IMG/VR virus record: IMGVR_UViG_3300048587_000705
Location: 34,643 to 98,642 of that record
From: a virus
Reading direction: 5' to 3' (one strand)
DNA length: 64,000 nt
In this document: one piece after another, positions 33,751 through 60,429 of the stretch
Position numbering within the stretch: the stretch's first letter is position 1
Layout: each line of letters starts with the position of its first letter
Translations under genes and position numbers: made by a program
Notes under the pieces: generated by a model
Database searches by the model: none
What the model was told of the DNA's origin: nothing
What the model saw: the letters and a program-made list of their open reading frames with translations, nothing else

Positions 33751-34827
33751 TTTTCTTTTTATTGTTTTGGAAGCGTTCAAATCTCTGTCCATTTTTATGT
33801 TACCACATCCTGTACATACAAATTCCCTGTCTGATAATTTCACATGTTGTATATTTTCACACTCGTGGCACTCTTTTGTTGATGGCTCAAAAGTACCTAA
33901 AAGAACCACATCTTTATTGTAACCAAATTTTTGCTTGTAGCTTATAAAAGTTTTAAGTTTAGACATTGACGTATCAGATATTGATTTTGACATTGTTTTG
34001 GATGTTAGCATTCTGGTTATATCCAAATTTTCCATTCCTATTTCGTTATAGTTATCAACTATATACCTACTTATGTTGTGTAGATGCCACTCTCTCTGAT
34101 TTTTTATTTTTTTGTGTACTTTGGCAACTTTTAATTTTTGCTTCTTATATCTGTTACTTCCTTTTTTCTTTCGACTTAAATGTCGTTGTGCCCTTTTTAG
34201 TTCTGCGTGGTTCTTGTCAAAACATCTTGGGTTATCAAATTGTAATCCATCACTTAATGTTACAAGTGATGAAACACCTAAATCTATACCTACATTGGGT
34301 TTTTGTTTTTTATTTTCATAGTTTGTTTTCTCTATTTCAAATGATATTGATACATAATAGTCGCCACAAGACTCTTTTGATATCGTGGCTCTTAAAAGAT
34401 AGGCATCTTTGGGTATATTCCTATCTTTTTTAAACTTAACTTTACCAATTTTTTCAAGTTGTATTGTATTTCCCTTTATTTTAAATTTTTGATTGGGGAG
34501 TCTATAGGTTTGCCTTGAATATTTATTTTTATATTTGGGTGCGCCTATTAATTTCTTACGTTTATTGTTAAAGAATTGTGTTTTAGTTTGTTGAAAGTCT
34601 CTTATTTTTTGTTGTAGTGCTGCTTGACTTACCTCCCCTATCCACTCAAACTCTTGTTTTAGTTCTTTTGGAGTTCTGTAAATAGGTTTAGGAAGATTTT
34701 CTTTATGATAGCTTTTAAATACATCTACGTAGTGATTCCATATAAATCTTACACAACCAAAGGTTTTAGAAAATAACTCTTGTTGTGTTTTATTGGGATT
34801 TAATTTATATTTAAAAGATAATACCAC
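33664..34827 (-). CDS. tnpB: TnpB RNA-guided endonuclease (IS200/IS605 superfamily), no TnpA in the window
   Basis: HTH FKYKLNPNKTQ..FGCVRFIWN; RuvC-I GIDLG, RuvC-II MENL, zinc finger CHEC...CTGC, RuvC-III DRDLNAS, all intact. AT-rich relative to flanks. Confidence 0.95.
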   Translation of the reverse strand: MVLSFKYKLNPNKTQQELFSKTFGCVRFIWNHYVDVFKSYHKENLPKPIYRTPKELKQEFEWIGEVSQAALQQKIRDFQQTKTQFFNNKRKKLIGAPKYKNKYSRQTYRLPNQKFKIKGNTIQLEKIGKVKFKKDRNIPKDAYLLRATISKESCGDYYVSISFEIEKTNYENKKQKPNVGIDLGVSSLVTLSDGLQFDNPRCFDKNHAELKRAQRHLSRKKKGSNRYKKQKLKVAKVHKKIKNQREWHLHNISRYIVDNYNEIGMENLDITRMLTSKTMSKSISDTSMSKLKTFISYKQKFGYNKDVVLLGTFEPSTKECHECENIQHVKLSDREFVCTGCGNIKMDRDLNASKTIKRKTVGVNADYKRGEIVRPKVHSDVKWRLIS

Positions 34828-34848: not shown

Positions 34849-34888
34849 CAAATATACGTTTATTATTTGTCCTGTACAAAAATGTCAA
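34849..34888 (-). promoter_or_regulatory. Bacteroidota -33/-7 promoter with upstream TTGACA
   Basis: TTGACA-TT-TTTG-N20-TATATTTG. Confidence 0.75.
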
Positions 34889-34893
34889 TTTTT

Positions 34894-44671: not shown

Positions 44672-44964
44672 TATTCTTTGCAGGTTATTCCCTCTATTTC
44701 TGTTTTAAGTATTTTTATGGCCTGTACAAGGTCAAACCATTGGAATTTTATGTTCGGTAAATCTTCCAGACCGTTATAGTCCTCCGTTTTTTTGGAGAGT
44801 TCCTCCACGGCAATCTTTATCCTGTAGGGGAGGTTGAACCAAGTTATATCCTGAACAAGGCTCTTGTAAAACGCATTATCGCTGCAAGAATCTATATTCT
44901 GTGGAATGGTCATTATCTGTTTTGTTGCCGATGGAAGATTCCACCATTGTACGGTTGTAGCCAT
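44671..44964 (-). CDS. Hypothetical protein with three W(W/F)(N/D)L repeats
   Basis: QWWNLP, TWFNLP, QWFDLV. Confidence 0.55.
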   Translation of the reverse strand: MATTVQWWNLPSATKQIMTIPQNIDSCSDNAFYKSLVQDITWFNLPYRIKIAVEELSKKTEDYNGLEDLPNIKFQWFDLVQAIKILKTEIEGITCKE

Positions 44965-45606
44965 TTATATGTTTTTTAGTATGTTGTAATAGTGGTTGGT
45001 TCTCTCTATACGCTCTTTTAAGTGGTTTGGTGTATATCTTGAATTTGGGTTGCCGAGGTTTACATGTTTTGACACTTTTGTAATGTTCTGCGTGTTCACT
45101 GTCTTGGTATTGTCCCACACATCGTTTTCGTTGAAATAGTACAGGGCGGATTCAAAGTAGTATTTATCAGCGATTTTTTCAGGGTTGTCCAATATGGACA
45201 TATCTCCCATCTTTTGGGCAAAACGCTCGTGGTTGTTTTTAAATGTTATTTGAATTGCCCCTTGCCCCCTATATCTCCATCCATCACCTGACTCCTCGTC
45301 TCCGTTCCCACCTTGGTTAGCGTACACTCTGTTAGCTATTTTCTCAGGCTTACGAGCATATTTATCAGCCAACTCTTTCGTAGGGAAGTATTTACCAAAC
45401 GTAGCTAACAGCCCTTGTGCAGAATAATTTAAATTCTCCGTTCCATACCTAAAACCCCCAGTTTCCACATCAGCTTGCCCAAGCAAAAAAGCTGTTTCTT
45501 CTTTGTTGGTGCCGAACAGTTCCATCATTTTTGTCAAGGTCTTTTTGCCTATTATACCGTCAGGATAAAGCCCGTTCTCTTTTTGAAATTTTTTTATGTA
45601 CTTCAA
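44965..45606 (-). CDS. Endolysin: peptidoglycan-binding domain + glycoside hydrolase family 19
   Basis: FQKENGLYPDGIIGKKT; ETGGF...ENLNYS...IANRVYA..GNGD..SGDGWRYRGQGAIQIT. TTG start supplied by the 99-bp element. Confidence 0.9.
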   Translation of the reverse strand: MKYIKKFQKENGLYPDGIIGKKTLTKMMELFGTNKEETAFLLGQADVETGGFRYGTENLNYSAQGLLATFGKYFPTKELADKYARKPEKIANRVYANQGGNGDEESGDGWRYRGQGAIQITFKNNHERFAQKMGDMSILDNPEKIADKYYFESALYYFNENDVWDNTKTVNTQNITKVSKHVNLGNPNSRYTPNHLKERIERTNHYYNILKNI

Positions 45607-45703
45607 AATTGTATGTATTAAGTTAATAATGTTTACTTACTGCTTCACTGGATGCCCGTCGGCGTGTCCTCCACAGTCACTTCGGGTATTTTTAGCCCTG
45701 TTT
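45605..45703 (-). mobile_element. 99-bp protein-less omegaRNA-like element, copy 1
   Basis: 5 mismatches to 59679-59777; GGG/CCC hairpin with AAAAU loop, ACUGUGGAG...GAAGCAGU core, AUUUU end. Confidence 0.7.
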
Positions 45704-45730
45704 ATTAAATCTTTATTATGAAATAACTAC

Positions 45731-46141
45731 CTATTTTCTTTTGTACGGTTGTTTTGTATTGTGGTGATGGTCATTGTCGCCGTAGTCATATCTATCGTAT
45801 CTTCCACTACCTTCGTTTCCAGATCCATATACCTCTCCGCGCCCACCAAGCATCCTGTTTACCTTGTCGAGTACTATATCAGGCATCTTCTCTATCGCCA
45901 CCTTTACCAGCCCTATACCTATTATTCCCCCAACTATCCCTATGATACCCACCCATCCACGTATGTCAAAGTTTATGGAAAGCTCGTAGTCCAAAAAGGC
46001 TATGGCAAAGGCCGTTATTATTATGAACATCAATTTTGTGCGGCTGTTCGTATGGTTGTTTATCTCGTAGAACGCTCTTACCAACGACCCCACCAAAGAT
46101 GTTATCAGTGCTATGGCAAGCACGTTGTATTCGAGTTCCAT
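45731..46141 (-). CDS. Putative holin
   Basis: Three TM helices and a charged tail; adjacent to the endolysin. Confidence 0.65.
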   Translation of the reverse strand: MELEYNVLAIALITSLVGSLVRAFYEINNHTNSRTKLMFIIITAFAIAFLDYELSINFDIRGWVGIIGIVGGIIGIGLVKVAIEKMPDIVLDKVNRMLGGRGEVYGSGNEGSGRYDRYDYGDNDHHHNTKQPYKRK

Positions 46142-46155
46142 AAAATACTGGTTTT

Positions 46156-46350
46156 TTAGATTTTTTTAAAATATTCCTTTGTGTCTTTTACTATGTGGTA
46201 GAGCCCATATGCACACAGTATCGAAGATATCAGTGCACCTATTATAAAAACGTAGTTGACCTGCAATACCACTTGTTCCGTGCTGAACAGAAGTCCTACG
46301 GTACCAAGTATCGCGGCACCTATCTTTCCTATATAATCCATTTGTCTCAA
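46156..46350 (-). CDS. Small two-TM protein (lysis-associated?)
   Basis: Two hydrophobic helices with a basic C-terminus. Confidence 0.5.
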   Translation of the reverse strand: MRQMDYIGKIGAAILGTVGLLFSTEQVVLQVNYVFIIGALISSILCAYGLYHIVKDTKEYFKKI

Positions 46351-46360
46351 AATTCTTTGT

Positions 46361-46395
46361 AGAAAAAAGGGAGGAGTTGTTGTTTCTCCTCCCTT
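46361..46395 (-). terminator. Intrinsic terminator
   Basis: AAGGGAGGAG...CTCCTCCCTT followed by a T run on the minus strand. Confidence 0.8.
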
Positions 46396-46430
46396 GTCCT
46401 CTGGTTAAAAAATATGTGTGTCTGTTGTTC

Positions 46431-48656
46431 TTACACTGCTGCTCCGTAGGCTTGTACCCCGTTTACTCCCGCTGCTCCCGCAAGGTCGTTCAAGAGTGCC
46501 TCCAAAGGTAGGTGCTTCCCTACTTCCACGGCTATTTGATAGTTGAATTTCTCAACATGGTCAGGCAACAATTCCCCTTGGTCAAGTCTCGGCGCCACTG
46601 TCACGGTGTAGATTACGTACTGTGCGTTTGCCTTTAATACGCTCTCCTCGCCCAAAATCTGCTTGGTGTACTCGTTCATGTGCCCGTCAGCTATGTTTCT
46701 GTGGCGTGGGTACCCGTTAAAGTAGGTAAAGTCCCTGTCCTCAAATGCCCAAAGCTGTCCACCAAGGTTCTCAAGTTCCGTTGCTCTTGACAGTACCTTT
46801 ACGTTGAAACGTTTTCTTCCTGTCTTAAAGGAGTTGTAGGTCTCGGTAGGATATCCGCCCGCTACCTCGATACGAACCGAGCTGTTGTAGAACGGTACGG
46901 CATCTCTTAAATCCTCTCCCGGAGCAGAGATTGTTTCCTTGCCCTTGATACGGATTCCCATCAAAGCTGTCTCGCTATATACAGGCTCTTCTTTTACCCA
47001 GTCTGTAAAATCAAATGGGTCTGGTGCCTCTGATGTAAATGCGTCGGTAAAGATAACGTCGCACTCATCGCACACAATATTCGTGGTAACGGTTGTGGAG
47101 TACACTGTCTGGCATCCACCTTCTATATTACCCTCTACATTTGATTGTTCCGCCACTGTTCCCGCAAGGTCGCCCGATGCGTTTGTGATGGTGATATCGA
47201 CCGCATCCTCGTCCTCGTTTACAAAGGTAAGTACCGCTGCGTTTGCTGTTACGGTTATACCAAGCGCGGCAAGATCGTCCTCATGTGCTGTAACAAAATC
47301 CGTTGCTGTCTGTGTAAGCGAGCTGTTAAAGGTGGCAAGATAATTTGTTCCCTCAACGTTTATGTTCGCGGTTCCAGATGTTCCAGTAAGTGTAATCGCT
47401 TGGCTAACTGCCCCTGCGTCCATCTGTGCAATGGCTATGGTCAGGTCTGGATAAGCTTCCTGTACCTCTGCCAATCGGCTGTTGCCACAACCGTCGTCCT
47501 TCAACTGTAATGTGTAAGTCTCGCTCTTTGCGTAGCATACGTCACCAGCTACCCAAGAAACGGTTGTCTCTGTCTCCTCAATACAAAGTTTTGAAAGATC
47601 CCCCACGAGGTCTACGGTCGCTGTCGGGTTAGCTGTCACGAAGGTGCCCACCTCTACGTCGGTCAGTTTGTCGTCCAACACGATTGTGTAGGTTCCCTTA
47701 CCGCTGTCAGAGCCCTGTCTTACTACCGAGCCCGCAACAAACCCCGGAAGGTTGTCCACGGTCGTGGATAGGTCTGCCCCGTCGTCCTCTAAGGTGACGT
47801 TGTACAGAAAACCTTCTGTGTACCCGTCATATCCGTCAGGACAGTCCTCACAGTTCTGTAGTACGGAAGTCGTGGTCATTGTATAGTCGGCAGGTGCGTC
47901 GTCCGCTGTCGGTTGCAATATTGTGTACTTACCGTCAACAAAGTTTACCTTTATCCCGTTGTACTGTGCCTGAACGTCCCCCAAAGAGTTTGAGTTCTGG
48001 TCACCGCTAAGGGCAAGTGTATAGAAAGTGTGCGATACACCGTTCTCGGTCAAATCTGCCTTTTCGCTGTTTGTGGGGAAGATGTCGATGTAGTTGGTGA
48101 TAGGGGTACTCTCCTTTAACCAAGTGTTCTTTAGTCTTTCCACCGCTTTTTCAACGATTTCCTGATTGGTCTGCTCGTCGTTCTCCTTGTCGAAGTAAAG
48201 ACGTACTGTCTCGGTTGCGCCCGGATATCCAAGGATACCAAGACCCGCTCCCGAAATGGTGATATCAAGTACCTCATGGTCACCCGTCTCAAAGGTAAGT
48301 GCCGTTGATGCGTTTATCCCATCGTATCCGATAAGAAGTTCGTCCACGGTCTTTTTCAACGATGGTGCATGTACGTCAATACCTACTACCTCGCTCAGTT
48401 TAAAGGCGCGTGTGGACTTTGCCTTGCTGTCCTGTGTACGTGCAGCGCCCAAGGGTGCCACACCTACCCTGATTTCATATTCTCGGTTCTTTGGCGCGCC
48501 AGCAAAATTGCTCACCGCTTTCAATCCGTTCTTGGTGTTGTTCTTTGTCTCAAAGATACCTAATTGACCTTTTGCAAGGTTCAATGATCCACCGCTTGTA
48601 AGTACGTTACCGTTCAATGTTGGCAAGAAACGGTCCATTCCTCTGTTTACTCCCAT
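46431..48656 (-). CDS. Major structural/auxiliary capsid-type protein
   Basis: 741 aa, acidic, beta-rich; third gene after the capsid gene, followed by a terminator. Confidence 0.6.
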   Translation of the reverse strand: MGVNRGMDRFLPTLNGNVLTSGGSLNLAKGQLGIFETKNNTKNGLKAVSNFAGAPKNREYEIRVGVAPLGAARTQDSKAKSTRAFKLSEVVGIDVHAPSLKKTVDELLIGYDGINASTALTFETGDHEVLDITISGAGLGILGYPGATETVRLYFDKENDEQTNQEIVEKAVERLKNTWLKESTPITNYIDIFPTNSEKADLTENGVSHTFYTLALSGDQNSNSLGDVQAQYNGIKVNFVDGKYTILQPTADDAPADYTMTTTSVLQNCEDCPDGYDGYTEGFLYNVTLEDDGADLSTTVDNLPGFVAGSVVRQGSDSGKGTYTIVLDDKLTDVEVGTFVTANPTATVDLVGDLSKLCIEETETTVSWVAGDVCYAKSETYTLQLKDDGCGNSRLAEVQEAYPDLTIAIAQMDAGAVSQAITLTGTSGTANINVEGTNYLATFNSSLTQTATDFVTAHEDDLAALGITVTANAAVLTFVNEDEDAVDITITNASGDLAGTVAEQSNVEGNIEGGCQTVYSTTVTTNIVCDECDVIFTDAFTSEAPDPFDFTDWVKEEPVYSETALMGIRIKGKETISAPGEDLRDAVPFYNSSVRIEVAGGYPTETYNSFKTGRKRFNVKVLSRATELENLGGQLWAFEDRDFTYFNGYPRHRNIADGHMNEYTKQILGEESVLKANAQYVIYTVTVAPRLDQGELLPDHVEKFNYQIAVEVGKHLPLEALLNDLAGAAGVNGVQAYGAAV

Positions 48657-48687
48657 TTTTTTGTGTTTTGATTAAAATTTGTGTTTG

Positions 48688-49362
48688 TTATTGTATATTC
48701 TCTTTTTCTCTGAGTTTGTCCGCTTGGAACGCGGGGTTCTCGTTGTTGAGCTTGAAGTCCCCTACCATTGCCGATATTATCCTGTCGAGCACTTGGTCTG
48801 GAAGCTCTATTTTCTTTGATGGGTCAAATCCCGATTCTGGGTTGTCCTCGTCAAGTAGCCCTATCTGGTTGGGGCGTCTGTAGTATGAAAGGTACATGTC
48901 CTTTACCTCGCTGTCCTTTTCCTTGTAGACTTTTATCCTGTCCTGTGAAAGGTGGTAGGGAAACTCTCTGTAGTCAAAGGAGGGTCCAAAAAAGCTGTCT
49001 GTCAGTATCTGCCCCCTGTCCTCGTCGCGTATCTCAAAAAGCTCTATGCGTACGTTGGTGCACTTTCCCTTCTGTGCCCTTGCCCAAGCATAGGATCCCT
49101 CTAAGTAATCCTCCGGCAACTTGAAATCGACGTGGTCGTTGTGCGTGTTGGAAGGGTCTATCCTCTTGTCGTCAACAAGCAGTACCTGAATATCCTTTAA
49201 CTCATCGTACTGCCTGTTGTTGAGGTACCATTTTATGTGCCTTACCGACAGTTCGTTGTACATGACCACGAACCTTTCCCTGTTTGTGCTGAGGTTGCTG
49301 TTCGTTCCGTTCTTTTCGGACTTTATTATATAGCGTTTGTACGCTTCCTCGGCGGTGGTCAT
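48688..49362 (-). CDS. Head-tail ring/adaptor protein
   Basis: LPEDYL...PSFDYRE...YYRRP...ELP pattern; gene order. Confidence 0.65.
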   Translation of the reverse strand: MTTAEEAYKRYIIKSEKNGTNSNLSTNRERFVVMYNELSVRHIKWYLNNRQYDELKDIQVLLVDDKRIDPSNTHNDHVDFKLPEDYLEGSYAWARAQKGKCTNVRIELFEIRDEDRGQILTDSFFGPSFDYREFPYHLSQDRIKVYKEKDSEVKDMYLSYYRRPNQIGLLDEDNPESGFDPSKKIELPDQVLDRIISAMVGDFKLNNENPAFQADKLREKENIQ

Positions 49363-49372
49363 TTACTATATT

Positions 49373-50338
49373 TTATTGTTCGAGTGCTACGATAATCTCC
49401 TGTAGTTTTGGGTTTTTGGCTATTGTCCTTGCCACTTCTTTTAGGTTTGTGCCCAATTGCTCCTCACCTATTACGTACATCTCGCGCTCTTTTGCAATCT
49501 TCTTTGTGCGTACGAGCTTCTGTACCTTTTGGTAAAATGAAAGTTCTTGATAGCCGTTCTTTTCGGAACCGAGCTCTACTGCGGATATAAAGTTCTTTTT
49601 GTTCTGGTAGGCGTTCTTTTTGTCGTCCACGTACATTTTAAAAGCGGACGATGCTAACTGTTTGTCCATATCCTTTCCGCCGGGGATAGGTATGCCAATA
49701 TAGTTCATTACCAACGAAAGAAGTTCCGTGTCGCCATTTAGCAATGAGTAGAACATACCTGACGCTTGTATATCCAAAGAATCGTTTTCCTGTTGTACGG
49801 TCTTTGCCTGTTCCTTGTTCTCTATCGAAAACTGTGCATATCTGTAGTTGGGGTTGCTGTCCTCTCCTTTTGGTGCCACTTTTCCGTGGAGTGCCACTTG
49901 GAACAGTTCGAGTAGGTGGTCTGGACGCTCTGTGTTGAATATCCGTCCCCTGTGCAGTTTTACGCCATAATCGAGCCAAAAATCATTGTCTGCCTTATAG
50001 TCAAGTTTTCCTTTTCCCAAGGTCTTTTCAAGTGGCTCGACGATATTCTGTCTTGCGGTGTTAACCAACCTCTTTACCTCATCGGAGGGCATTCCCGCAT
50101 AGCATGGCGACTCCTCGTAGAGTCCTGTGTCCCACACACCCATGTCCCTGTTGAAAGGGACTGCCTCTATGTTCATTCCATATTCGGCCAAATATTTTGT
50201 TGTACGGTGTTCTTTGAACCCATCGGGCGCGCTACCGTCATACTTTGGGCTCACCTGATAGATGTTCCCTTTTTCAATGGATATGTCCTTTACCTGTAAG
50301 GTGCTGGGTACCACTGATGTCTTTTTTGCTGTTGCCAT
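49373..50338 (-). CDS. Conserved head-module protein downstream of the capsid gene
   Basis: 321 aa; same position as in crAss-like capsid modules. Confidence 0.6.
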   Translation of the reverse strand: MATAKKTSVVPSTLQVKDISIEKGNIYQVSPKYDGSAPDGFKEHRTTKYLAEYGMNIEAVPFNRDMGVWDTGLYEESPCYAGMPSDEVKRLVNTARQNIVEPLEKTLGKGKLDYKADNDFWLDYGVKLHRGRIFNTERPDHLLELFQVALHGKVAPKGEDSNPNYRYAQFSIENKEQAKTVQQENDSLDIQASGMFYSLLNGDTELLSLVMNYIGIPIPGGKDMDKQLASSAFKMYVDDKKNAYQNKKNFISAVELGSEKNGYQELSFYQKVQKLVRTKKIAKEREMYVIGEEQLGTNLKEVARTIAKNPKLQEIIVALEQ

Positions 50339-50368
50339 TATTGTTTGGTTTTTGGTTTTTAGGTCGTT

Positions 50369-50393
50369 CCCCTCCTCCGTTGTGGAAGAGGGG
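50369..50393 (-). other. GC-rich hairpin after the capsid gene (mRNA stabiliser or weak terminator)
   Basis: CCCCTCTTCC...GGAGGAGGGG with no U tract. Confidence 0.5.
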
Positions 50394-50410
50394 TGTTTCC
50401 TATTTTATTC

Positions 50411-52111
50411 TTAGTTAAAGCCTTTTCGCTCTGACTTTTCAAGTTCAATCATCACAAACTTGCTCGGATCCTCTAACCACACCGAACAGTTGTTGTATGC
50501 CCAGAACTCCTGTGCAATGGTCTTGTTGGATGCCACGATGTCGGATGATTTTCTCATGTCGTAACGTCCATTTATCATACCACTGTACTGCATCGGTCCT
50601 TCTGGTTTCACGATGTACACGTTTGAGTTTGCGTTGCCGCCCGCTACAAGTGAAGTGTTCTTTGGAAGGTTCTTCTGGTTGTTAGAGTAAACTTGGTCTG
50701 TCGCGTTCCATATAATCATAGAGTATGTAGTGTGCGCCTTGTTCTCTCCGTGCATACCTTTTGAAAAACGGTCCTGCATCATTCCGTGGTCAAGGGATGC
50801 GTCGCGCTCGATCTCTACCTGACCTAATTGTGGAACGTACACGGAAGTAAATCGTATCGGTCTCCAAGAAAGGTTCGTAGGGTCGGTTCCCTGAACTGGG
50901 TTCGGTATCTGTCTGTCCGCTCCAAGGAATGGTCCAAGTGCCGTTTGTTGTGCCAATATTTCCTTTTGGAAAAGGTCTATCATGTTCTCGAAGGCCAACG
51001 TACCGCACTTGAATTTTATACGTCTCTGTTCATACTCAAGGTCTGGGTTCATACGGAACACATATTCCGCTGCCTGTTTTACGTGGGTAAAGGTGATTCC
51101 TCCCGGCTTACCGTACTTGATGATAAATCCTCGGCGAAGTTGGTGCCAAAGTCCCTCGTTGAAACGGATAACACCGTTGGTATCTTTTATGGTACCAGCT
51201 CTTTGGAAAAGAATCTGCGTACCAGTCAATTTGTTCAACTGTTTTCCTACAAGGTATTCAACTGTAGAACCAATGTTGGCGGTAGATTTGATAGGTCCGT
51301 TTGCACCTAAGTCCATACGTACGGCAAATTCGCCGTAACCGTTCATATCCATCTCACCCTGTATCTTGTTCAAATAGTCCTTTGCGGTAGCCTCTGCGCG
51401 CCCAAGGTTCTTTGAGTCGGCCATACCCGTTACCCAACCTTCCACACCTCGTGTAGAACCTAACCTGAACTCACATCGCATTGACCCTACTTGGTCGGGC
51501 ATCTGTAATTTTGCAAATTTTGTGCCGTATTCCGATACACCATGACCGATTACAAAGTATTCGATACCTTTTGCAAGCTTATAAGGTTGGTACCACTCGG
51601 CAGGGTCGTTCGTTACAAGTTTCACTGGGTGGATATATCCCGTTCCCGTGAACTTTACCTCTTCCTCCTCGGCGACCATAATCTGCTGCCCGTCAAAAGA
51701 GTCGTAGGTCAAAGTCGTTCCCGGGGCAAATTCCTTGTTCAGGGCTATGTAAAAAATAGAACCGTCGACACCAGCGTAGTTCTGGTTGGACATATCCGCC
51801 TCTGTATAGCATCCCCTGTCCTCGTAGATAGGTACGTCATATGTAAATGCACCGTCCCATCCGTTTACCTCGATTACGGCCTTGCTGTTTACAAGGTCGT
51901 CGTAGATAGATTTTGTCTGGTTGGGGGAACCTTGGTTCCAGAACTGCATAAGTCCCCTATGGTTCTCCATGGGGTCTTCCATATACCATGAATGTAGGGA
52001 AGGGTTGTCAAAATATCCCTGAAAGGCCTTGCTGACCTCTTTCTGCCCCATAAAAGCGATAACTTGGTTACCGTTTCTTATGGTCGGAATTCCTTGTTGT
52101 TGTATTGCCAT
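50411..52111 (-). CDS. Major capsid protein (HK97 fold, crAss-like)
   Basis: 566 aa, GLWHQL...G, C-terminal ..WLEDPSKFVMIE; order terminase-portal-scaffold-capsid; biased codon use. Confidence 0.85.
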   Translation of the reverse strand: MAIQQQGIPTIRNGNQVIAFMGQKEVSKAFQGYFDNPSLHSWYMEDPMENHRGLMQFWNQGSPNQTKSIYDDLVNSKAVIEVNGWDGAFTYDVPIYEDRGCYTEADMSNQNYAGVDGSIFYIALNKEFAPGTTLTYDSFDGQQIMVAEEEEVKFTGTGYIHPVKLVTNDPAEWYQPYKLAKGIEYFVIGHGVSEYGTKFAKLQMPDQVGSMRCEFRLGSTRGVEGWVTGMADSKNLGRAEATAKDYLNKIQGEMDMNGYGEFAVRMDLGANGPIKSTANIGSTVEYLVGKQLNKLTGTQILFQRAGTIKDTNGVIRFNEGLWHQLRRGFIIKYGKPGGITFTHVKQAAEYVFRMNPDLEYEQRRIKFKCGTLAFENMIDLFQKEILAQQTALGPFLGADRQIPNPVQGTDPTNLSWRPIRFTSVYVPQLGQVEIERDASLDHGMMQDRFSKGMHGENKAHTTYSMIIWNATDQVYSNNQKNLPKNTSLVAGGNANSNVYIVKPEGPMQYSGMINGRYDMRKSSDIVASNKTIAQEFWAYNNCSVWLEDPSKFVMIELEKSERKGFN

Positions 52112-52143
52112 TTTTGTGTGTGTTTGTTATGTATTGATTAATT

Positions 52144-53283
52144 TTAGTTTATGTACCTTAATACGAGCGGGTCCTTTTCCTCTTTTGGCTGTTGCTTGCC
52201 CGCCTTTGTTTCCTGTTTCTTTGGAATAAGGTTCAATGTTCTCAAAACATTTACGTCCTTTCCCTTTGTGGCCTTTTCACCTATTGCCTTTAGATATTCC
52301 TCTTTGTTGTTCAGGTAAAAAAGGAAGTCGGACAATGCCTCGGGGTCTTTTTTGAGTTCCTCTACCGCCTGCATAATAGGGTCGTTCCCTTTGTCGGCGG
52401 ATATAAAATCGAGCATCGGCTTTATTGCCGTATCTTTCAACCCGTATTTGGAAAGGTGTTCCTTTACCTGTTTTCTTGTGGACTTTACCGTTTCTTTAAA
52501 ATCCTCCTGTGCCTTCAACGCCTTGTCGTTCTCGGATTTTAAAAAGTCGTCAAATCCTTTTTTCAGTGCCTCTGCGTATTCCTCTGCTTCTTTGTCAAGG
52601 CTCAAGTCCTCCTTGCGGTTTTTTATAATAGTGTCAAGGTCTTTTTGTGATAATTTGCCGTTGCTCTCTATCATATACTTTTGACGTACCAGTGCCTCTT
52701 GGTGCGATTCCTGCGTTAGGTCAAACTTTTCAAGGGGGTCGATATAGTTCTTCTTGGCGTTCAATATCTTTGTAAGGTCGCCCTTGTTCTTTGATATCTC
52801 CAATATCTGTAGCGATATGTCGTCAAGTTCCTCTTTGTTGATGTACTTGTCCCTTAAATCCTCGTTGCGCGAGGCTTCCTGTGACTGCTGTATCTGTAAG
52901 AACGTTTCCTCGTCGATATTATCGAGTTCGGACAATATTACTTCCTCTCCGTCTATCTCTATCTTGGCGTCCTGCCAAGAGCCCATCTCTATATATTTTT
53001 TTGCAAGACCTGCGTAGACCGACGGTTGGGTGTTTTCAAGTTCCACCGTTTTTTCTGTACCTTCCTTTTCCTTGGTCGGTGGTGTATTTCTATCTTTTTT
53101 GGGGTCAGTTGCCTGCTCCTCTTGTTCCTGCTCTTCCTCTTCTTGGTTATTGTCACCTTCTACGTTAAAGATGATATCCTCGTTTTCTGATTCCTCTGTT
53201 GTAGGTTCTTCGCTAAACAAGTCAGAAAAATTGAAGTTACCGATTCCGTTAGGTATTTCTAATGTATTCTCTTGGTTTTTCAT
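52144..53283 (-). CDS. Capsid scaffold-like acidic protein
   Basis: Highly acidic and helical, between portal and capsid genes. ATG at 53281-53283 preferred because the TTG at 53289 lies inside the -7 box. Confidence 0.7.
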   Translation of the reverse strand: MKNQENTLEIPNGIGNFNFSDLFSEEPTTEESENEDIIFNVEGDNNQEEEEQEQEEQATDPKKDRNTPPTKEKEGTEKTVELENTQPSVYAGLAKKYIEMGSWQDAKIEIDGEEVILSELDNIDEETFLQIQQSQEASRNEDLRDKYINKEELDDISLQILEISKNKGDLTKILNAKKNYIDPLEKFDLTQESHQEALVRQKYMIESNGKLSQKDLDTIIKNRKEDLSLDKEAEEYAEALKKGFDDFLKSENDKALKAQEDFKETVKSTRKQVKEHLSKYGLKDTAIKPMLDFISADKGNDPIMQAVEELKKDPEALSDFLFYLNNKEEYLKAIGEKATKGKDVNVLRTLNLIPKKQETKAGKQQPKEEKDPLVLRYIN

Positions 53284-53286
53284 TTG

Positions 53287-53318
53287 CAAAGCTATGTATT
53301 AAGTTTTATTCTGCCAAA
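53287..53318 (-). promoter_or_regulatory. Bacteroidota -33/-7 promoter
   Basis: TTTG-N20-TAGCTTTG, 3 nt before the ATG. Confidence 0.65.
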
Positions 53319-53374
53319 TAAGTTAATATTTGACCTCGTTAATTATTTATTGACTTTTATTTGTCAATTTTTTG

Positions 53375-56167
53375 TTAATTTTTATTTACTATACTATTAA
53401 ATCTATCAGCGGCGATTTCCTGTTTTTTTACTTCAAGCCGTTCACGTTCCAATTGTAGTTTTTCTTCTTCTAAAGATATCTTTCTGTTATCGTTGGTAGT
53501 CTTTCTGTTTATCTCCTTGTCTTTCAATTCATTGGTCTTATTGGATTGGTTTTCTCTTTCAACCCTATCCGCCGTGTCGTTTATATATTTAAGATGGTCA
53601 AAGGTGGCGTTTGAATCAGCTGACTTGGCGACCGCAGAAATTCTCGTGCTATCGAGCTTGTTATCACGGTCAAGTGCGTTCTCTCTTGCCTTGAACGCTT
53701 TATCCTGTTTATCTAGTATTATCTCTTTCTGAGCCTCTGTTTCTATCAATTTCTGTTCGTGCGCTCTTTGAGCTTCTATTTCTTTTTGTCGCTCTATTCT
53801 GGACTCTTTTAGTAACTGTATTGTTTCTGTCATAGATTTGCTCGATATAACGCGGGCAAAATCCTCGAGATCGTTGCTAAAAGTATTGTTGTTGAGCAGG
53901 AAACTTCGGAAGGTTTCGAGTTCCTTGCGCTTGGAGGAAGAGCTCAGGGGCCTCAACCCAAACTTCCTTAAATGGAACCATTCATCCGAGAACTGCATTA
54001 ATTGTAAAACTCCGTCACCGTCCATAAAATCGACAGAAATGTCCTTGTCGTTGGTCTGGCAATATTGCGCGACGGCAAGATACGTTTCGAGGTCCTTTAG
54101 CCTTGACGCGTCCATTTTTTGAAATATGTGTTCTATCTGGTTAAAAGAGTTCTGGTTCCCTACCTTTACTCCCTCTGCCGTTACGTATTCCTGTGGCGTT
54201 CCAAGGTCCTGAGGTGTTACCCCTATCTGTTCGAGCATCAGCCTTTTGTAGTACTCGGCCATCTGCATCTTTTGCTGTATCTGCGGGACAAACGTTATGT
54301 CCTGAGCCATCATCGTGTTGTACTGTACCCCTTGTTTGTCGCGGAGGTTCTGTTTTGACGCATCTATCGGCACCATCCCCACATCCCTTGCCATGTCCAC
54401 CATATTGAGCAGTGCCTCCCTTGAATCGCCCATCTCGGCAAAGTCGCTTGTCAAGAAGTTCACGTCAAAAAGAAAGAACATCCCTATTTCCTTTTCGGAC
54501 AGTGAGTGCATAAGGTTCATCTGGTAGTTGTACTCTATCTGGTATGGTCTTAATTTTGCCGCCTCGGAGTTTGTTATAAGCCCCGTTACGGGAAGTTCCA
54601 CGTTATAAAGGTTCGAGTTCCCCTTTATCTGGAACGGCATTGGTCCTACACCCAAGTACAAATCCTCTTTTAGGTATCCGTTGGATGCACATATTTTTAC
54701 ACCTTTGTATACGCGCGGGGCGTAGGTAAAGCAAATAGTGTTCGGTTCAAGTTCCCCATTTCTTTCCTTTACCTCTAGTTCGGCTATTGACAGGCTGCGG
54801 AGTTTTTTTATCCCTTTTTCTTCCAAGAACCCTTCCAATATTTCATCCGTTACAAGTTCTCGCGCCATTATCCCAGAATCGGTCTCGTAGTAAAGGACGC
54901 CTATCCTTTCGAAGGAGCGCCAGTATGCCTCCACTACCCTTATGGTATCGGTACGCACGTCTATGTCCCTTCTTATCCCCGTCAAGCTCGATATGGTTGT
55001 CGGGCCGTCGTGGTAGCTTGGTATCCAGCTTGCCTTTGTTACTTCCTCCCCATCGGAGTTGGTGTAGGTCAGCTCCCCCATTGGACGCCCGAACATCTCC
55101 TGTATTGCAACGTTCGCCTCCCTGTCGTAATAATCCTCTCCGGGCAGGCTCTCAGTCTCTACAAAGTTGCTCTTCATCATCTTTTCAAATGATGGTTCGT
55201 CCCCTGTACTATCACCCCCGTCATAATCAAAGGCGTTCAGAAGTTTTTTCTGGTCGCGCTCGTTTATCATGTACCCGTACAGGTTCACGATGTCCGAGGG
55301 GGAAAGTTCGTGTATCCTGCCTATGTACTCACCGTTCTGTGGGTACTCTATCTCTATGTCCTGTGAAAAGAATGTCGTGATAGGGCTCCACCTTTCGGAT
55401 TCGTGGTAGTCGTACCCTATGCGGTAGTGCTTGAACCACCTTCCAGTCAAGAACTTGTCTATGAAATATTGGTGGTCCTTTACGTCGGCATCGTGTCTTA
55501 AAAGTTCTTTTTCCAAAGTCTTTTCAGCCCACTTTGCCGCAAGTGGCTTCCAGTCGCGCCTCATCGCCTCGTTTATCTGCGGAGGGGTGGCGAGTTGTTG
55601 TTTCTGTTGTTCTAAATATTGTAGGTACTGTTCCTGTTCCTTTGGGTCCTCGAACTGTTTGTTGGGGTCTATCCCCCTTCTTATAAGTGTAGAGTCGAGT
55701 TCGAGCTTGAATCTCTTTTGGGAATATTCGTGCAACCTGTTGGTCAGCTCCCTGTCAAACTCGTTCCTTGAAATCGGGTCCAAGAAATCGACGCGGAACT
55801 TGTCCTTTACGTCGTTGTACTTTCCCGCCAAGTGGTTGCCCAATTGTCCCAGAAGGTCATAGTGGGATACGTATGCGGGTATCTCCGCCGCCTCCATCAT
55901 GTCGGTAATGGGGCGCATTGAATCGGGCGGTCTTTCGTAGTCGGTAGCGGCAAGGTTCCCCTCCACCATAGAGTACAGGTCATTGAACTTCCAGTTGTGT
56001 CGTAGCTGTTGGAGCCCTATTTCCTCCAACCTGTCCATACACGCCCTTTGCCACTTTTTGCCCTTTCTGTGCAATGGGATTGCCTGTGGCGGGAGCGCGG
56101 AGCTGTAGCTTCCCGTCCCTATACCTTGGTACATTTTATAAATGTTGCCCTGTTCTCCGCTATCCAA
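53375..56167 (-). CDS. Portal protein
   Basis: 930 aa, LPPQAIP..K...W; LRPYQIEYN; GVTPQDLG; coiled-coil C-terminal barrel; follows the terminase. Confidence 0.85.
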   Translation of the reverse strand: MDSGEQGNIYKMYQGIGTGSYSSALPPQAIPLHRKGKKWQRACMDRLEEIGLQQLRHNWKFNDLYSMVEGNLAATDYERPPDSMRPITDMMEAAEIPAYVSHYDLLGQLGNHLAGKYNDVKDKFRVDFLDPISRNEFDRELTNRLHEYSQKRFKLELDSTLIRRGIDPNKQFEDPKEQEQYLQYLEQQKQQLATPPQINEAMRRDWKPLAAKWAEKTLEKELLRHDADVKDHQYFIDKFLTGRWFKHYRIGYDYHESERWSPITTFFSQDIEIEYPQNGEYIGRIHELSPSDIVNLYGYMINERDQKKLLNAFDYDGGDSTGDEPSFEKMMKSNFVETESLPGEDYYDREANVAIQEMFGRPMGELTYTNSDGEEVTKASWIPSYHDGPTTISSLTGIRRDIDVRTDTIRVVEAYWRSFERIGVLYYETDSGIMARELVTDEILEGFLEEKGIKKLRSLSIAELEVKERNGELEPNTICFTYAPRVYKGVKICASNGYLKEDLYLGVGPMPFQIKGNSNLYNVELPVTGLITNSEAAKLRPYQIEYNYQMNLMHSLSEKEIGMFFLFDVNFLTSDFAEMGDSREALLNMVDMARDVGMVPIDASKQNLRDKQGVQYNTMMAQDITFVPQIQQKMQMAEYYKRLMLEQIGVTPQDLGTPQEYVTAEGVKVGNQNSFNQIEHIFQKMDASRLKDLETYLAVAQYCQTNDKDISVDFMDGDGVLQLMQFSDEWFHLRKFGLRPLSSSSKRKELETFRSFLLNNNTFSNDLEDFARVISSKSMTETIQLLKESRIERQKEIEAQRAHEQKLIETEAQKEIILDKQDKAFKARENALDRDNKLDSTRISAVAKSADSNATFDHLKYINDTADRVERENQSNKTNELKDKEINRKTTNDNRKISLEEEKLQLERERLEVKKQEIAADRFNSIVNKN

Positions 56168-56197
56168 TGTGTGTTATTAAAGTGTTAAAAATAACTG

Positions 56198-56237
56198 CAA
56201 AAGTACATATATTCTTTCTATCTTCCAAAAATGTCAA
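56198..56237 (-). promoter_or_regulatory. Bacteroidota -33/-7 promoter with upstream TTGACA
   Basis: TTGACA-TT-TTTG-N20-TACTTTTG. Confidence 0.75.
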
Positions 56238-56244
56238 TTTTTCG

Positions 56245-58944
56245 CTACCATTGTCTCCTTCTTCCCTGCGGAAAAAGTCCTCTTGGCTTACGGTTGTTTT
56301 TTAGTTCTTGCAAGCGTTTTTCTTTTAGTCTTATCTCTTCGTCGGTGAGGGGAACTTTTGGGTACATCCCGTTAGCGCTAAAATAATAGTCCGCTCCCGT
56401 CGCACTCATCAAGGATATGATAGTATCCACGTTCTCTCCGGGCCTATAATTTATCATCTCATCGAGTACCCTTATATCTTTATACCTCTCAAATCCCCAT
56501 TTTATTTGTGGGTTGCCGTTTTCATCTTCATAAGTATCCGTTTTTTTAGTGATTGTATTTAAAATACCAAAAAATAAATCTTTGTTCTTTTTTGTAGGAG
56601 TCCATCCAAATTGTCTTCTGCCGTTGTTGTCTATATCTATCTCTGATGTCCCGTCAAAAGATTTTATAAGGTATTTGTCGGTTATGTGGCTACCCAGACC
56701 GTCCAAGAATGTCTTGAAGCCCATATCGGCATTTTCCATAAATACGGGTGCGTTGTACATCTGTATCAACATGTAGATAGTCTTGTAAAACAGGGCGTGG
56801 GGATCCGGCCTTGTATGGAGTGACGCAACTATTTTTCCGTTATCCCTTCTTATTATCGTAAATGACCCAAGTGAGTCGCCGTCAGCTTCTTCAAACTTAT
56901 AATCGTCGAGACCGCAGAGGTAGAAACCGAACGGGGCATTTGGTAAAGGCTCTTCATATATAGTTGGTGGGGAGTCATGAAAACCACCGCTAAAGGGTAC
57001 GTCTGGGTAATCTTTGTCAGATAGTCCTGTTATGACAATATTGTCCTGTTTATCATATCCGAGTACCACTTTTCTCCCAACATCACCTGTTTCTATAAGT
57101 TTTTCTTTATAGAGTTTTATTTCCTCTTGGGGAAAGGGGTTTGTCTTTCCTGAAAGAAATATTTCTTCTGGGTTTATGGGAAAATATACTTTCTCTTTTG
57201 TAAGGGATAATTTGTTGTTTTTTCTGTCCTCTCTTCTTTGCTTTAATATTTTATAGGATTCCCCCCAATCAGTTACTTGTATCTTTATTTTACTCAATTT
57301 TTTACCTTCTTTAGACAGATATTCGTTTAAAGAGATCTCTTTTCTAGTGTGCAATGTTATCACGCTCATCTGTGCGGGAAGAAAAGTTCCAAATTTTCTC
57401 CTTTTCCAAGTAATGTGCTCTTTTGGTATATTTCTTTCGAGCGCGTCCCAGTCCATCTCTGTTATATCCTCTTTCTCTGGATCTTTTAATACTGTCAAGG
57501 CATCTTTTGAAAGGTTTTCATTACCCCCGGTCCCAGAAAGTATGGGAACGCACCTTTTTACGCCCCCGGATTCAAAAGCAGGTTTTGCAGCTTCGAGTTG
57601 TTTTATGAACGGCGCTTTCATACATTCGTCAAGTACAAAGGCGTCGGGCGTAAACCCCGCAAGTACCTCTGACTTACTGTCCCCGCCACTATCAAGGTTT
57701 ATAATGTTCAGGGTACAGAAGGTAATGTTTTTTTGGTTTCTTTTCTTTACCCCCAGTTCTATTTTTTTTGTCCAGTCACCCGATGTATTTGGCAGTTCAA
57801 ATGCTGGGTTGCAGTTTATTACGGTTTTTTTAAAATTTTTCTCTATCTGCCCCAAATCCTTTGCGCTTCCCCCTGCAACTATAAGTTCTTTTCCGCCCTT
57901 TAACGCCGACCATTGTAGGTGCGATGCTATCAATGTTGTCTTTGCGGCACGTCGGGTGGCACATAAAAACATCATTCTGTTTTCTTTTTGTGCGTTCTGA
58001 AAACTGTCCTGTATTATGAACCACTCATTGTCCCTAAGCGGTGGGTTCATCATCTCATCATTGGACTCCATTATACCAGACCTCTCGTTGAATTTAAGTA
58101 CTGGTATGTCTGTTTTAAAAACATTCAGGTGGCAGTACATCCAAGGTGTTATATATACACCGTCGATTGTTATACCGTTTCTTATTTTTTTAAATTCATC
58201 AACGTAAAATTGCAGCGTCTTTTTATCCTGCTCAAAATAATGTTTTTCCTCGTTCCATACTGGTGGGTTTTCGATGTGTATCAACATCTCGTTTTTTGGC
58301 GGGCTTGTAAAATCTATCCCTAAAGACTCTACTTTTTTTCTCACCTCGGGGTATTCATTCTCTATCGCCTCACGTAGACTTAACGGAGCTTTTTTATTAT
58401 CCCTTAATTCAAGTATTGAGTCGTTGTTCTGGTTGTCAATATTGAGCTTGGTTATCTCATCATTTAGTTTTGCCTGATTTTTATAGAGCATGTCATCGAA
58501 CTCGATCTCGTCGCTCTGGTAATCCTTTTGCGTCTTCTTTTCGTCGTTCTCCGTGATTTCGACCTCCCCCAAAACAGAAGAAGACGATATATAATCGTCT
58601 ATCCTGTTGATGTGTATCTTTATAATAGACAACATCCTGTTTATTTCAGTCTTTACTTTGCTATCGTGCCTGTCAGCTTCCGTATTTTGTACAAAATGCT
58701 TTAACCTGTCAAGTATCGTGGTCGCTATCTTATGCTGTATCTTATATTCGGGCTCCTTTCCCTCAGCGAGCGTTTCTCCTTTGAATTTTATGTCCTTTAT
58801 GTAGTAGTATTTGGAATAGGTTATTTTCCCCTCGTTATTCCTTACCACCTGTGGCTTTGACCAATCGTTGTCCTTAAAGTACTTTTGGTATTTTTGGAAT
58901 TGGGGCTTGTTCTTTTTGACGAAAGATTTTAAAAAAGTGCTCAT
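56245..58944 (-). CDS. terL: Terminase large subunit with long N-terminal extension
   Basis: PPLRDNEW, Walker A RRAAKTT, Walker B FVLDE, SGTGG, nuclease GLDDY...SLGS, N.D. Confidence 0.9.
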   Translation of the reverse strand: MSTFLKSFVKKNKPQFQKYQKYFKDNDWSKPQVVRNNEGKITYSKYYYIKDIKFKGETLAEGKEPEYKIQHKIATTILDRLKHFVQNTEADRHDSKVKTEINRMLSIIKIHINRIDDYISSSSVLGEVEITENDEKKTQKDYQSDEIEFDDMLYKNQAKLNDEITKLNIDNQNNDSILELRDNKKAPLSLREAIENEYPEVRKKVESLGIDFTSPPKNEMLIHIENPPVWNEEKHYFEQDKKTLQFYVDEFKKIRNGITIDGVYITPWMYCHLNVFKTDIPVLKFNERSGIMESNDEMMNPPLRDNEWFIIQDSFQNAQKENRMMFLCATRRAAKTTLIASHLQWSALKGGKELIVAGGSAKDLGQIEKNFKKTVINCNPAFELPNTSGDWTKKIELGVKKRNQKNITFCTLNIINLDSGGDSKSEVLAGFTPDAFVLDECMKAPFIKQLEAAKPAFESGGVKRCVPILSGTGGNENLSKDALTVLKDPEKEDITEMDWDALERNIPKEHITWKRRKFGTFLPAQMSVITLHTRKEISLNEYLSKEGKKLSKIKIQVTDWGESYKILKQRREDRKNNKLSLTKEKVYFPINPEEIFLSGKTNPFPQEEIKLYKEKLIETGDVGRKVVLGYDKQDNIVITGLSDKDYPDVPFSGGFHDSPPTIYEEPLPNAPFGFYLCGLDDYKFEEADGDSLGSFTIIRRDNGKIVASLHTRPDPHALFYKTIYMLIQMYNAPVFMENADMGFKTFLDGLGSHITDKYLIKSFDGTSEIDIDNNGRRQFGWTPTKKNKDLFFGILNTITKKTDTYEDENGNPQIKWGFERYKDIRVLDEMINYRPGENVDTIISLMSATGADYYFSANGMYPKVPLTDEEIRLKEKRLQELKNNRKPRGLFPQGRRRQW

Positions 58945-58947
58945 TCT

Positions 58948-59445
58948 TTATCCGCCGTTTTTCTCCATCTGGTCAACTACCATTTGCATAACCTGTTTGT
59001 ACATTGGGTTCTGTTCAAATTCTTTGACAAATTTGTCCCTACCTCCTTTTATGCGCTCCTCCAATTTTTTTCCGTCGACAAAGAACGTACATTTGTTGCC
59101 CTCCGCGTCCATTGCCCTCTGCATCTTTTCGTTCAGGCTGTCGGTGAAATGTGTAGTAAGGTCAAGTGCCTCGGCTACCTTGTACATCCCTATCAATTGG
59201 TTCAAAAGCAGGCGAAGGTCGGACAAATGTTTTTCATAGCTGTACTGTATAAAAATCATGGCGTCCTTTGCCTGTTCGCTGTTTGGGTTTTCCTTTAATT
59301 GCCTTGTAATATCGTTCTTTTTGTCGCCGAACTCTTTTTCCTTTTCTTGAAAAATGTTCAGGTACGCCTGCCAATATTGGAAGTCGGTAACTATTTTTTT
59401 AATTAAAAATTCTGCTTCTTTTGATATCTCTTTTTCTGTTGCCAT
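58948..59445 (-). CDS. Hypothetical helical protein
   Basis: 165-aa ORF in the operon. Confidence 0.65.
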   Translation of the reverse strand: MATEKEISKEAEFLIKKIVTDFQYWQAYLNIFQEKEKEFGDKKNDITRQLKENPNSEQAKDAMIFIQYSYEKHLSDLRLLLNQLIGMYKVAEALDLTTHFTDSLNEKMQRAMDAEGNKCTFFVDGKKLEERIKGGRDKFVKEFEQNPMYKQVMQMVVDQMEKNGG

Positions 59446-59449
59446 GTCT

Positions 59450-59680
59450 CTACTGTGTAAAAAGTTCTGTTTCTGCCGTTTCTTTTGTCTTTGCGCTCTC
59501 TATGGCGTTCAATATCTGCTCGTTGGTGAGTTCTTTTACGTCCGATAGTTTTCCCGTGCCGTTCTCGAAAGTCGCTATCCTCAGAAAACTGAAAAGGATT
59601 TCACCCAACGTATATTCTGGGTATTCACCTATCAATGCCTTTATCTCGTTTATCGCGGCGATTTTATGTGTACTGCTCAA
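59450..59680 (-). CDS. Hypothetical protein; TTG start supplied by the 99-bp element
   Basis: 76 aa, YPEYTLGEILFS. Confidence 0.65.
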   Translation of the reverse strand: MSSTHKIAAINEIKALIGEYPEYTLGEILFSFLRIATFENGTGKLSDVKELTNEQILNAIESAKTKETAETELFTQ

Positions 59681-59777
59681 AATTGTATGTATTAAGTTGA
59701 TAATATTTACTTACTGCTTCACTGGATGCCCATTGGCGCGTCCTCCACAGTCACTTCGGGTATTTTTAGCCCTGTTT
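59679..59777 (-). mobile_element. 99-bp protein-less omegaRNA-like element, copy 2
   Basis: Near-identical to 45605-45703; fills almost the whole intergenic space. Confidence 0.7.
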
Positions 59778-59780
59778 ATA

Positions 59781-60128
59781 TTATTTGTCTGAAATTTTTC
59801 CTGTTAGTCTTAGTGTCGTTTTGTGGCGCTCACCGTTCTCGGTGTACATAATGTGGATGTCTTTCTGTATCTGCCCCGCGTCCTTGTTCTTTACCCACTC
59901 TATATCAGCGGTAAAATTTTTTCCGTCAATTTTGTTGAGTTTAGATTTTACACGGCAGGTGCAACCACTCTGTATGCTCACGGCGGAAGCGTCACTGTCA
60001 AAGACTAAAGAAATGTTAAACTTACTTTGAAAGCCTTTTTGTTTTGTGCCGTAATCGGCGACAAACTTATGGTCACCTTCTTTTGTAAGTGTGACCATCT
60101 GTGGTGTGTTATTTGTTATGTTCAGCAT
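59781..60128 (-). CDS. Ig-like (DUF1573-like) protein
   Basis: DYG...SGCTC...K.I......L.LTGK. Start uncertain; the internal ATG (MLNIT) is preferred over 60191. Confidence 0.55.
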   Translation of the reverse strand: MLNITNNTPQMVTLTKEGDHKFVADYGTKQKGFQSKFNISLVFDSDASAVSIQSGCTCRVKSKLNKIDGKNFTADIEWVKNKDAGQIQKDIHIMYTENGERHKTTLRLTGKISDK

Positions 60129-60147
60129 TTTTATGTTTATATTAAAT

Positions 60148-60429
60148 TCAGTTTTCCTCTTCTTCGGTCCATTTTGGTTCAAGCCCCTCATCCTTTAGCG
60201 AGCAGTATTCCTCGGGAAGTATTGCTTTGTACTTTATCCCGCAGTCACACAGTGTGCATTGTGCGTTGAACCAGTTGAGTACGTACCATTTCCAGTCGTG
60301 CCAAGTCTTGTTTTTCTTGTTGTGGAAATATAGGGGGCACCCCCTGCAAATATCAAGCCTTTTTTGGTACCAGTCCGGTGCCTTGCTTTTTTTCTTTAAA
60401 CGGGATTTAATTATCTTTTTCCAGTCCAT
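60148..60429 (-). CDS. Small zinc-finger protein
   Basis: RLDICRGCP...CTLCDC.I..K......C....KW. Confidence 0.7.
   Translation of the reverse strand: MDWKKIIKSRLKKKSKAPDWYQKRLDICRGCPLYFHNKKNKTWHDWKWYVLNWFNAQCTLCDCGIKYKAILPEEYCSLKDEGLEPKWTEEEEN

Follow-up and report, generated by a model that had tools for sequence, protein, structure and literature searches.

A 99-nt protein-less mobile DNA element seamlessly inserted inside the ATG start codons of a 76-aa gene and of the endolysin gene of a phage

The window, the whole 64,000-nt stretch of DNA analyzed here, comprises bases 34643–98642 of a 98,642-bp viral record. On its minus strand lies a 76-aa gene (59450–59680; phrog_37769) of unassigned function, which was placed two genes ahead of the gene for the large terminase by the list of open reading frames and by syntenic homologues. 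The gene upstream of it (59781–60191, minus strand; 136 aa, phrog_37411, from the same list and the annotation) ends with a TAA stop codon 3 nt before a 99-nt mini-element (59679–59777, minus strand), which belongs to repeat family D1 and whose core is missing from related strains. The order on the gene strand is TAA (59783–59781), T-A-T, the core (59777–59679) and G (59678). The AT at 59778–59779 represents the first two bases of the ancestral ATG, now parted from its G, as evaluated from the sequence, from the empty alleles described below and from the literal Met of a homologous protein (P0001). The present start codon of the 76-aa gene is TTG (59678–59680), composed of the 3′ TT of the element and the ancestral G (open reading frame list, sequence and the protein entry P0003). 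Removing the core 59679–59777 in silico gave TAA-T-ATG-AGC-AGT. At both copies of the element an in-frame ATG was regained only by a cut at AT^G or by the equivalent cut at A^TG, so that the ambiguity of the cut amounts to one T. The window's own 76-aa protein (P0003) is stored with an initial Leu, i.e. with the TTG start called, and a Logan protein 97% identical to it (P0001) begins with MNSTHK, a literal Met. Since the collection stores L for the TTG of the window's protein and thus spells start codons literally, the start codon of the empty allele is ATG.

On the gene strand, the element starts with AA and finishes with TTTT. It has no genes; its sense frames contain stops, and a protein-coding element was rejected because of these stops and because three of the five changes from one copy to the other would be non-synonymous in an antisense open reading frame. 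Neither a target-site duplication nor terminal inverted repeats were present, as judged from both copies and from the empty alleles. The scan of the element for tRNA and tmRNA found none, and Rfam gave no match at the element either at the gathering threshold over the window or at E values up to 10 over both loci, a negative result that says little because Rfam failed to match the termini of the resident TnpB elements as well. Scanning for sigma-70-type promoters and terminators found nothing within the element, and no Bacteroidota −7 box was seen in it by eye. The approximately 45 nt before the TTG are rich in A and U, with no predicted structure other than a weak AU hairpin.

The other copy of the element in the window (45605–45703, minus strand; repeat and alignment) lies within the ATG of a GH19 endolysin gene. 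Alignment of 45603–45705 with 59677–59779 gave 95% identity over 103 nt, in agreement with the preliminary description of this DNA, which had taken the latter as the second copy of one mini-element. Its length of 103 nt, four more than the core, is due to bases common to both loci, namely AT at the left end and GA at the right. Beyond these, the two copies have unrelated flanks: the left ones aligned no better than shuffled sequences, and the right ones were borderline (p about 0.05). The copies are 14,074 nt apart and were the only two found in the whole 98,642-bp record by BLAST, nhmmer and a covariance model. They differ at 5 of the 99 positions, every difference being a transition, which indicates that neither copy is a fresh duplicate of the other. 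This divergence between copies is about the same as that between strains.

Copy 1 is located between the gene for a holin-like membrane protein and that for the endolysin (44965–45606, minus strand; annotation and homologues), which has a GH19 domain and a short peptidoglycan-binding N-terminus and takes its TTG start from copy 1. Endolysin homologues (P0004, P0005, P0007, P0008 and L048; 50–82% identical) start with a literal Met at the same residue, followed by Asp, Asn or Ser, and the full 213-aa frame read from the element-made TTG aligned with the homologues end to end. In the source annotation, the endolysin is a 135-aa fragment (P0006) beginning at an internal TTG; the gene caller shortened it to 135 aa because of the element-made TTG, so the insertion has a consequence for annotation as well. 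The full-length endolysin is predicted from the reading frame to depend on the TTG supplied by the element, including the ETGG segment, which we take to hold the catalytic Glu of GH19 enzymes. Damage by the insertion was considered as the reason why only the second half of the peptidoglycan-binding domain (PF01471) is present, and was rejected because the homologues share the same N-terminus. Upstream of copy 1 is a 27-nt spacer (45704–45730, minus strand; alignment to related strains), the last AT of which is part of the split codon; the other 25 nt are AT-rich and missing in related strains, which have CC there instead, and the holin stop codon is TAG here and TAA in the relatives. The spacer is unique within the window. 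The two left flanks resembled each other, and the 25-nt spacer the element, only at the level of chance, so that kinship was rejected in both cases.

Empty alleles at both loci were found in close relatives. Contigs from four public sequencing runs of three studies (X1, X2, X5 and X9) were aligned to 44800–60400 of the window; they were about 85–99% identical to it, piece by piece, and lacked the element at both loci. At the 76-aa gene, the X1 and X2 contigs joined 59679 to 59781 via TG, replacing 101 nt, to give TAA-C-ATG-AGC-AGT on the gene strand, and a 427-nt contig of X5, for which the empty allele and the third site described below were read from alignment tables, skipped exactly 99 nt with 7 differences over 427 nt (~98% identical). 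At the endolysin gene, the X1, X2 and X9 contigs joined 45605 to 45732 via TGGT, skipping 126 nt, to give AAA-TAA-CC-ATG-AAG-TAC. Filled and empty alleles coexist among strains that are 93–98% identical. Presence and absence of the element may be a long-standing polymorphism that recombination between strains has reshuffled. At window 59674–59678, the X5 empty allele reads ATG-AAC-AG and so resembles the filled left junction AT-AAACAG, which is probably a coincidence, the X1 and X2 empty alleles reading ATG-AGC-AG.

The arrangement without the element was also seen in more distant phages. All 13 distant phage contigs (TerL 34–56% identical) had the same gene order, and in each of them the upstream stop codon abuts or overlaps the ATG of the homologue of the 76-aa gene, the junctions taking the form TAATG, TAA-ATG or TAG-ATG; the homologous proteins begin with M-N-F/Y-K or M-Q-Q at the same position. 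In a complete relative (G002), the gap between the holin and endolysin genes is 5 nt. Hence the orthologues without the element, namely those on the X1 and X2 contigs, that encoding P0001 and those of the 13 distant relatives, do begin with ATG here. The preliminary description had argued that an ancestral ATG was split, that the end of the element gives the TT of the TTG, and that excision of 59679–59777 restores TAA-T-ATG-AGC-AGT; the empty alleles bear out all of this, reading ATG at the split codon and, in X1 and X2, differing from the predicted junction only by C for T. The insertion is decisively shown by the empty alleles of the close relatives, and also by the distant relatives and the homologous proteins. 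These observations establish a 99-nt piece of protein-less mobile DNA that was seamlessly inserted inside the ATG of the 76-aa gene in the lineage of this phage, with a 95% identical copy inside the ATG of the endolysin gene, and we consider it highly probable that the insertion is genuine and mobile and repairs the start codon it cuts.

In run X5, a contig matched 59678–59774 of the element with foreign sequence on both sides as loose ends. Its junctions on the gene strand were ...GAATAT^CAGGGC... and ...CAATTTTG^GAAACAC..., which we read as one site from two loose ends. This third site has AT before and G after the element, and its frame is open past the TTG, as far as can be seen in the 30 letters visible on each side. 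The third copy was without the first AAA of the element, which reflects either a variable end or a small deletion, and its flanks were absent from this genome and from the viral collection. In the same run the locus 59679–59777 was empty while the element was located elsewhere, showing that strains 98% alike differ in the location of the element.

Regarding the choice of target, all three known junctions have only A-T-G in common. The left 5-mers were TTAAT, AATAT and AATAT, which share only the AT, and the flanks on the opposite strand were CTTC, GCTC and TTCC. The base following the G at the X5 site is G, so the common motif is ATG and not ATGA. The genome has about 105 genes by a crude count, is 95% coding, and contains about 2,700 ATG triplets on both strands; start codons (~100 of 2,700) account for about 4% of these triplets, and the spacers total roughly 5 kb. 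Insertion indifferent to sequence, with selection acting only against gene disruption, would be expected to place copies anywhere in the ~5 kb of spacers and not three times inside A-T-G; if insertion were specific for ATG, only about 4% of the sites would be starts, with selection clearing the remainder. What the data support is selection acting together with specificity for a short sequence, namely ATG in an AT-rich context; they fall short of showing that start codons as such are recognized. The earlier proposal of start-codon targeting at AT^GA is accordingly borne out in part: a further copy does sit at AT^G, the next base there is G instead of A, and targeting and survivorship are inseparable.

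Folding of the element was evaluated on both strands. On the sense strand, the folding energy was no better than that of shuffled sequences (z = +0.4). RNAalifold predicted a central imperfect hairpin on the plus strand (59724–59743) with 8 pairs, one bulged C and one or two G-T/G-U wobbles, in which a C/T difference between the copies keeps its pair only on the plus strand. The copies differ at five positions, two of which fall in a loop; the remaining three fall in stems of the antisense (plus) strand fold, where all of them are wobble-compatible (G-C to G-U, A-U to G-U), whereas on the sense strand they would be C-A mismatches. This gives a hint that the folded strand would be the antisense strand, and so speaks against a guide RNA read from the sense strand, although only three changes are concerned, of which chance would put half on that side, and the structure was chosen to fit. 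Besides this single GC-rich imperfect hairpin in the center, there were two weak hairpins unlike each other; a pair of similar subterminal hairpins on one strand was not found.

The genome carries three TnpB genes (PF07282), one in the window (33664–34827, minus strand), whose ends are unlike the mini-element by alignment, and two upstream of the window (28696–29751 and 481–1656 of the genome), and none was present in 14 related phage records (G001–G014). The lineage of this phage thus seems unusually colonized by IS605-family elements. In local alignments, the element scored no better than shuffled sequences against the termini of the three resident TnpB elements or against the PATE of this genome, and sequence flanking 28 related TnpB genes of bacterial genomes showed no similarity to it either. 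The covariance model of the element found only its own two copies in 339 kb, which included TnpB1, TnpB2 and the loci of all but one of the 28 relatives, TnpB3 and the PATE being covered by sequence comparison. Pairing of a guide with a cleavage site by the IS608 rule was applied by hand on both strands and gave no convincing fit. No Y1 transposase (PF01797) was present in this 65%-complete record or in the 14 related phage records; the preliminary description had noted the lack of a transposase, correctly as far as Y1 is concerned.

Searches for further copies or for a parent element gave no match to the element in the phage GenBank collection by blastn. Exact patterns (a 21-mer, a gapped hairpin pattern and a 16-mer) in the viral_contigs collection gave chance matches only, as checked by BLAST and by eye, and a 20-mer in metagenome_contigs and a 23-mer in genome_contigs gave none. 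BLAST against the 14 related phage records found AT-rich chance matches only, and chance matches were likewise all that appeared in nine metagenome loci by local blastn and in 401 sampled Bacteroidota genomes. No close relative of TnpB1 was found in viral_contigs by a peptide-pattern method, and no RNA data set was among the sequencing runs listed.

Based on these observations, the element may be envisaged to work as follows. Insertion would cut the ancestral ATG at AT^G (or A^TG) without duplication, and the terminal TTTT together with the orphaned G would provide an in-frame TTG in the old frame. Where a start overlaps the preceding stop as ATGA, the initial AA would also turn the stop TGA into TAA, a type of site to which none of the three known ones belongs. 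Insertion would be tolerated in a genome that is 95% coding because the ends rebuild the start codon (and the stop codon). An enzyme encoded elsewhere would move the element in trans, and the chemistry could be single-strand HUH/Y1 transposition of the IS200/IS605 type, HUH single-strand transposases being known to insert seamlessly beside a short motif, with neither duplications nor inverted repeats; specificity for ATG and purifying selection would then leave only the copies in start codons. The absence of a duplication and of a shared core of at least two bases excludes DDE transposition, as in MITEs, and serine or tyrosine recombination, and a MITE derived from a DDE element was also rejected for having neither terminal inverted repeats nor a target-site duplication here. 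Regarding the traits of IS200/IS605 elements, insertion was seamless with a precise empty site (exactly the 99-nt core, with AT and G unduplicated). The three sites did not show a fixed 4–5-nt target at the left end, however, and paired end hairpins, ends homologous to a transposase or TnpB parent, and a sense-strand scaffold related to the omegaRNA of a TnpB partner were not found. We rank IS200/IS605-like mobilization first because three TnpB genes and a PATE are present here and TnpB is present in none of the 14 relatives, and propose it only tentatively. The broader description, a miniature element mobilized in trans with codon-healing ends, to which IS200/IS605-like transposition is the nearest known fit, appears to us about evenly balanced between right and wrong. 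The element is filed as a miniature trans-mobilized element and not as a member of IS200/IS605.

Several other explanations have to be weighed against this trans-mobilized miniature element. An undescribed kind of mobile element might be involved, in which an enzyme or an RNA mechanism recognizes ATG, perhaps as W-W-A-T-G-R, and in which the folded strand is antisense to the genes. Such an element would be consistent with the finding that, seamless insertion aside, the testable defining features of IS200/IS605 were not observed, with A-T-G as the only sequence common to the three junctions, with the lack of a homologue in the collections searched and with changes that are wobble-compatible on the plus strand only; on the other hand, no candidate enzyme was identified, only three sites, namely two complete copies and a third seen in part, define its target rules, and the co-occurrence with TnpB elements points to that superfamily, so we consider it possible but rather unlikely. 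We give similarly limited credence to the bolder statement that the element stands for a new class, which is protein-less and ATG-specific, survives only inside start codons owing to its codon-healing ends and moves outside the IS200/IS605 rules, or else that it is a portable guide for a TnpB drive into competitors. A version of the latter takes the element as an orphan omegaRNA scaffold, in which the operon transcript would load a resident TnpB with ~20 nt of the downstream gene as the guide, and empty alleles would be cut and converted by homing. The seamless insertion and the left flank ending in AT, like the TAMs TTTAT, TTCAT and TTGAT (10.1101/2023.03.14.532601), are in line with this, as are the three TnpB genes that the relatives lack and the natural coexistence of filled and empty alleles, which is the setting for homing. 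Nevertheless, neither sequence nor covariance comparison matched the element to the 3′ ends of TnpB1 and TnpB2 or to the flanks of the 28 relatives, nor did sequence comparison match it to TnpB3 and the PATE; the sense strand folded no better than shuffled sequences (z = +0.4), and the three stem substitutions are tolerated on the antisense strand only. In addition, the left flanks TTAAT and AATAT differ at three of five positions, and single TAM changes reportedly abolish TnpB cleavage (10.1101/2023.03.14.532601). Both transposon ends and a scaffold would also have to fit in 99 nt. We regard homing by such a scaffold as improbable. The terms TAM and guide, which had been used in the preliminary description, found no support in these comparisons: the left 5-mers differ, no TnpB or PATE end matches and the variation fits folding of the opposite strand.

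The repeat could also be a regulatory cassette, i.e. a structured leader or an antisense RNA gene that was duplicated before two late genes and spread by recombination. Both copies are indeed located directly before late genes (that of the endolysin and a small gene ahead of the terminase genes), and the 3′ 45 nt have the character of an AU-rich leader as expected for initiation without a Shine-Dalgarno sequence; in Bacteroidota, initiation proceeds without Shine-Dalgarno and AU-rich leaders are expected. The flanks, however, have no homology on which recombination could act, strains 98% identical do without the element, neither a promoter- or terminator-like site nor an Rfam family was found inside, and nothing in this reading accounts for three insertions lying exactly at AT^G; we consider a cassette very unlikely. 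Removal at the RNA level, by a mini-intron or a bypass element that is cut out of the mRNA to leave AUG, would agree with the fact that precise loss of the 99 nt regains AUG. No ribozyme or intron family matched even at E values up to 10, to our knowledge 99 nt is far below the size of known self-splicing introns, and the in-frame TTG makes splicing needless; we consider removal from the mRNA hardly credible.

Bacterial MITEs (Correia, ERIC and RUP) and the mycobacteriophage MPME elements are small, gene-less, multi-copy, mobilized in trans and often co-transcribed with their neighbors, and they have terminal inverted repeats and target-site duplications; the 99-nt element differs from them in that the empty alleles show neither. 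Phage mobile introns and free-standing homing endonuclease cassettes (PMC13565253) share with it the presence/absence polymorphism at precise sites and the harmlessness achieved by restoring expression, whereas the 99-nt element has neither a ribozyme nor an endonuclease gene, and its start codon is rebuilt in the DNA without splicing. PATE-like mini-elements of IS200/IS605 (related to ISGst1/ISGst5, Geobacillus stearothermophilus; 10.1101/2023.03.14.532601) are alike in being gene-less and seamless with neither duplication nor inverted repeats, in a left flank ending in AT (cf. TTTAT/TTCAT), in a genome bearing TnpB and in their precise absence from sister alleles. In contrast to them, the 99-nt element has no paired end hairpins, no fixed left 5-mer and no similarity to a TnpB-bearing relative, it lies inside ATG and not after a fixed pentanucleotide, and no cognate TnpA is known; it is also roughly half as long as the 228-bp PATE of this genome. 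A TnpB-only IS element of the same phage (TnpB at 28696–29751 of the genome) likewise occupies a gene junction by a start codon, with neither gene broken. It is inserted at an ATGA gene overlap, and its left flank TTCAT is the complement of ATGAA. This element differs from the 99-nt element in lying beside the ATG, in encoding a 378-aa TnpB, in having GC-rich end hairpins and in sequence, the two showing no similarity. In its behavior, the 99-nt element is closest to the PATE-like IS200/IS605 derivatives and to this TnpB-only element beside ATG.

Phage genomes are nearly roomless for parasites, and the known solutions are self-splicing introns, inteins and intergenic homing cassettes. Cutting a start codon and regrowing it would be a different and very economical route to harmlessness for an element of 99 nt, by which even an essential gene, such as that of the endolysin, can come to rely on a parasite for its start codon. 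Since filled and empty alleles coexist, the mobility of the element, the cost of the change from ATG to TTG and any homing driven by TnpB are directly testable.

Two further observations were made in the window. A three-member repeat on the minus strand (23484–23528, 34849–34893 and 56198–56242) shows the pattern TTG...TAnnTTTG of Bacteroidota-type promoters upstream of minus-strand genes, and points to a Bacteroidota host. Moreover, the segment 53136–54177, inside a 930-aa gene (53375–56167), was poorly covered by the related strains of the four runs and contained several joints between diverged segments, as if it were a hypervariable part of a large virion gene.
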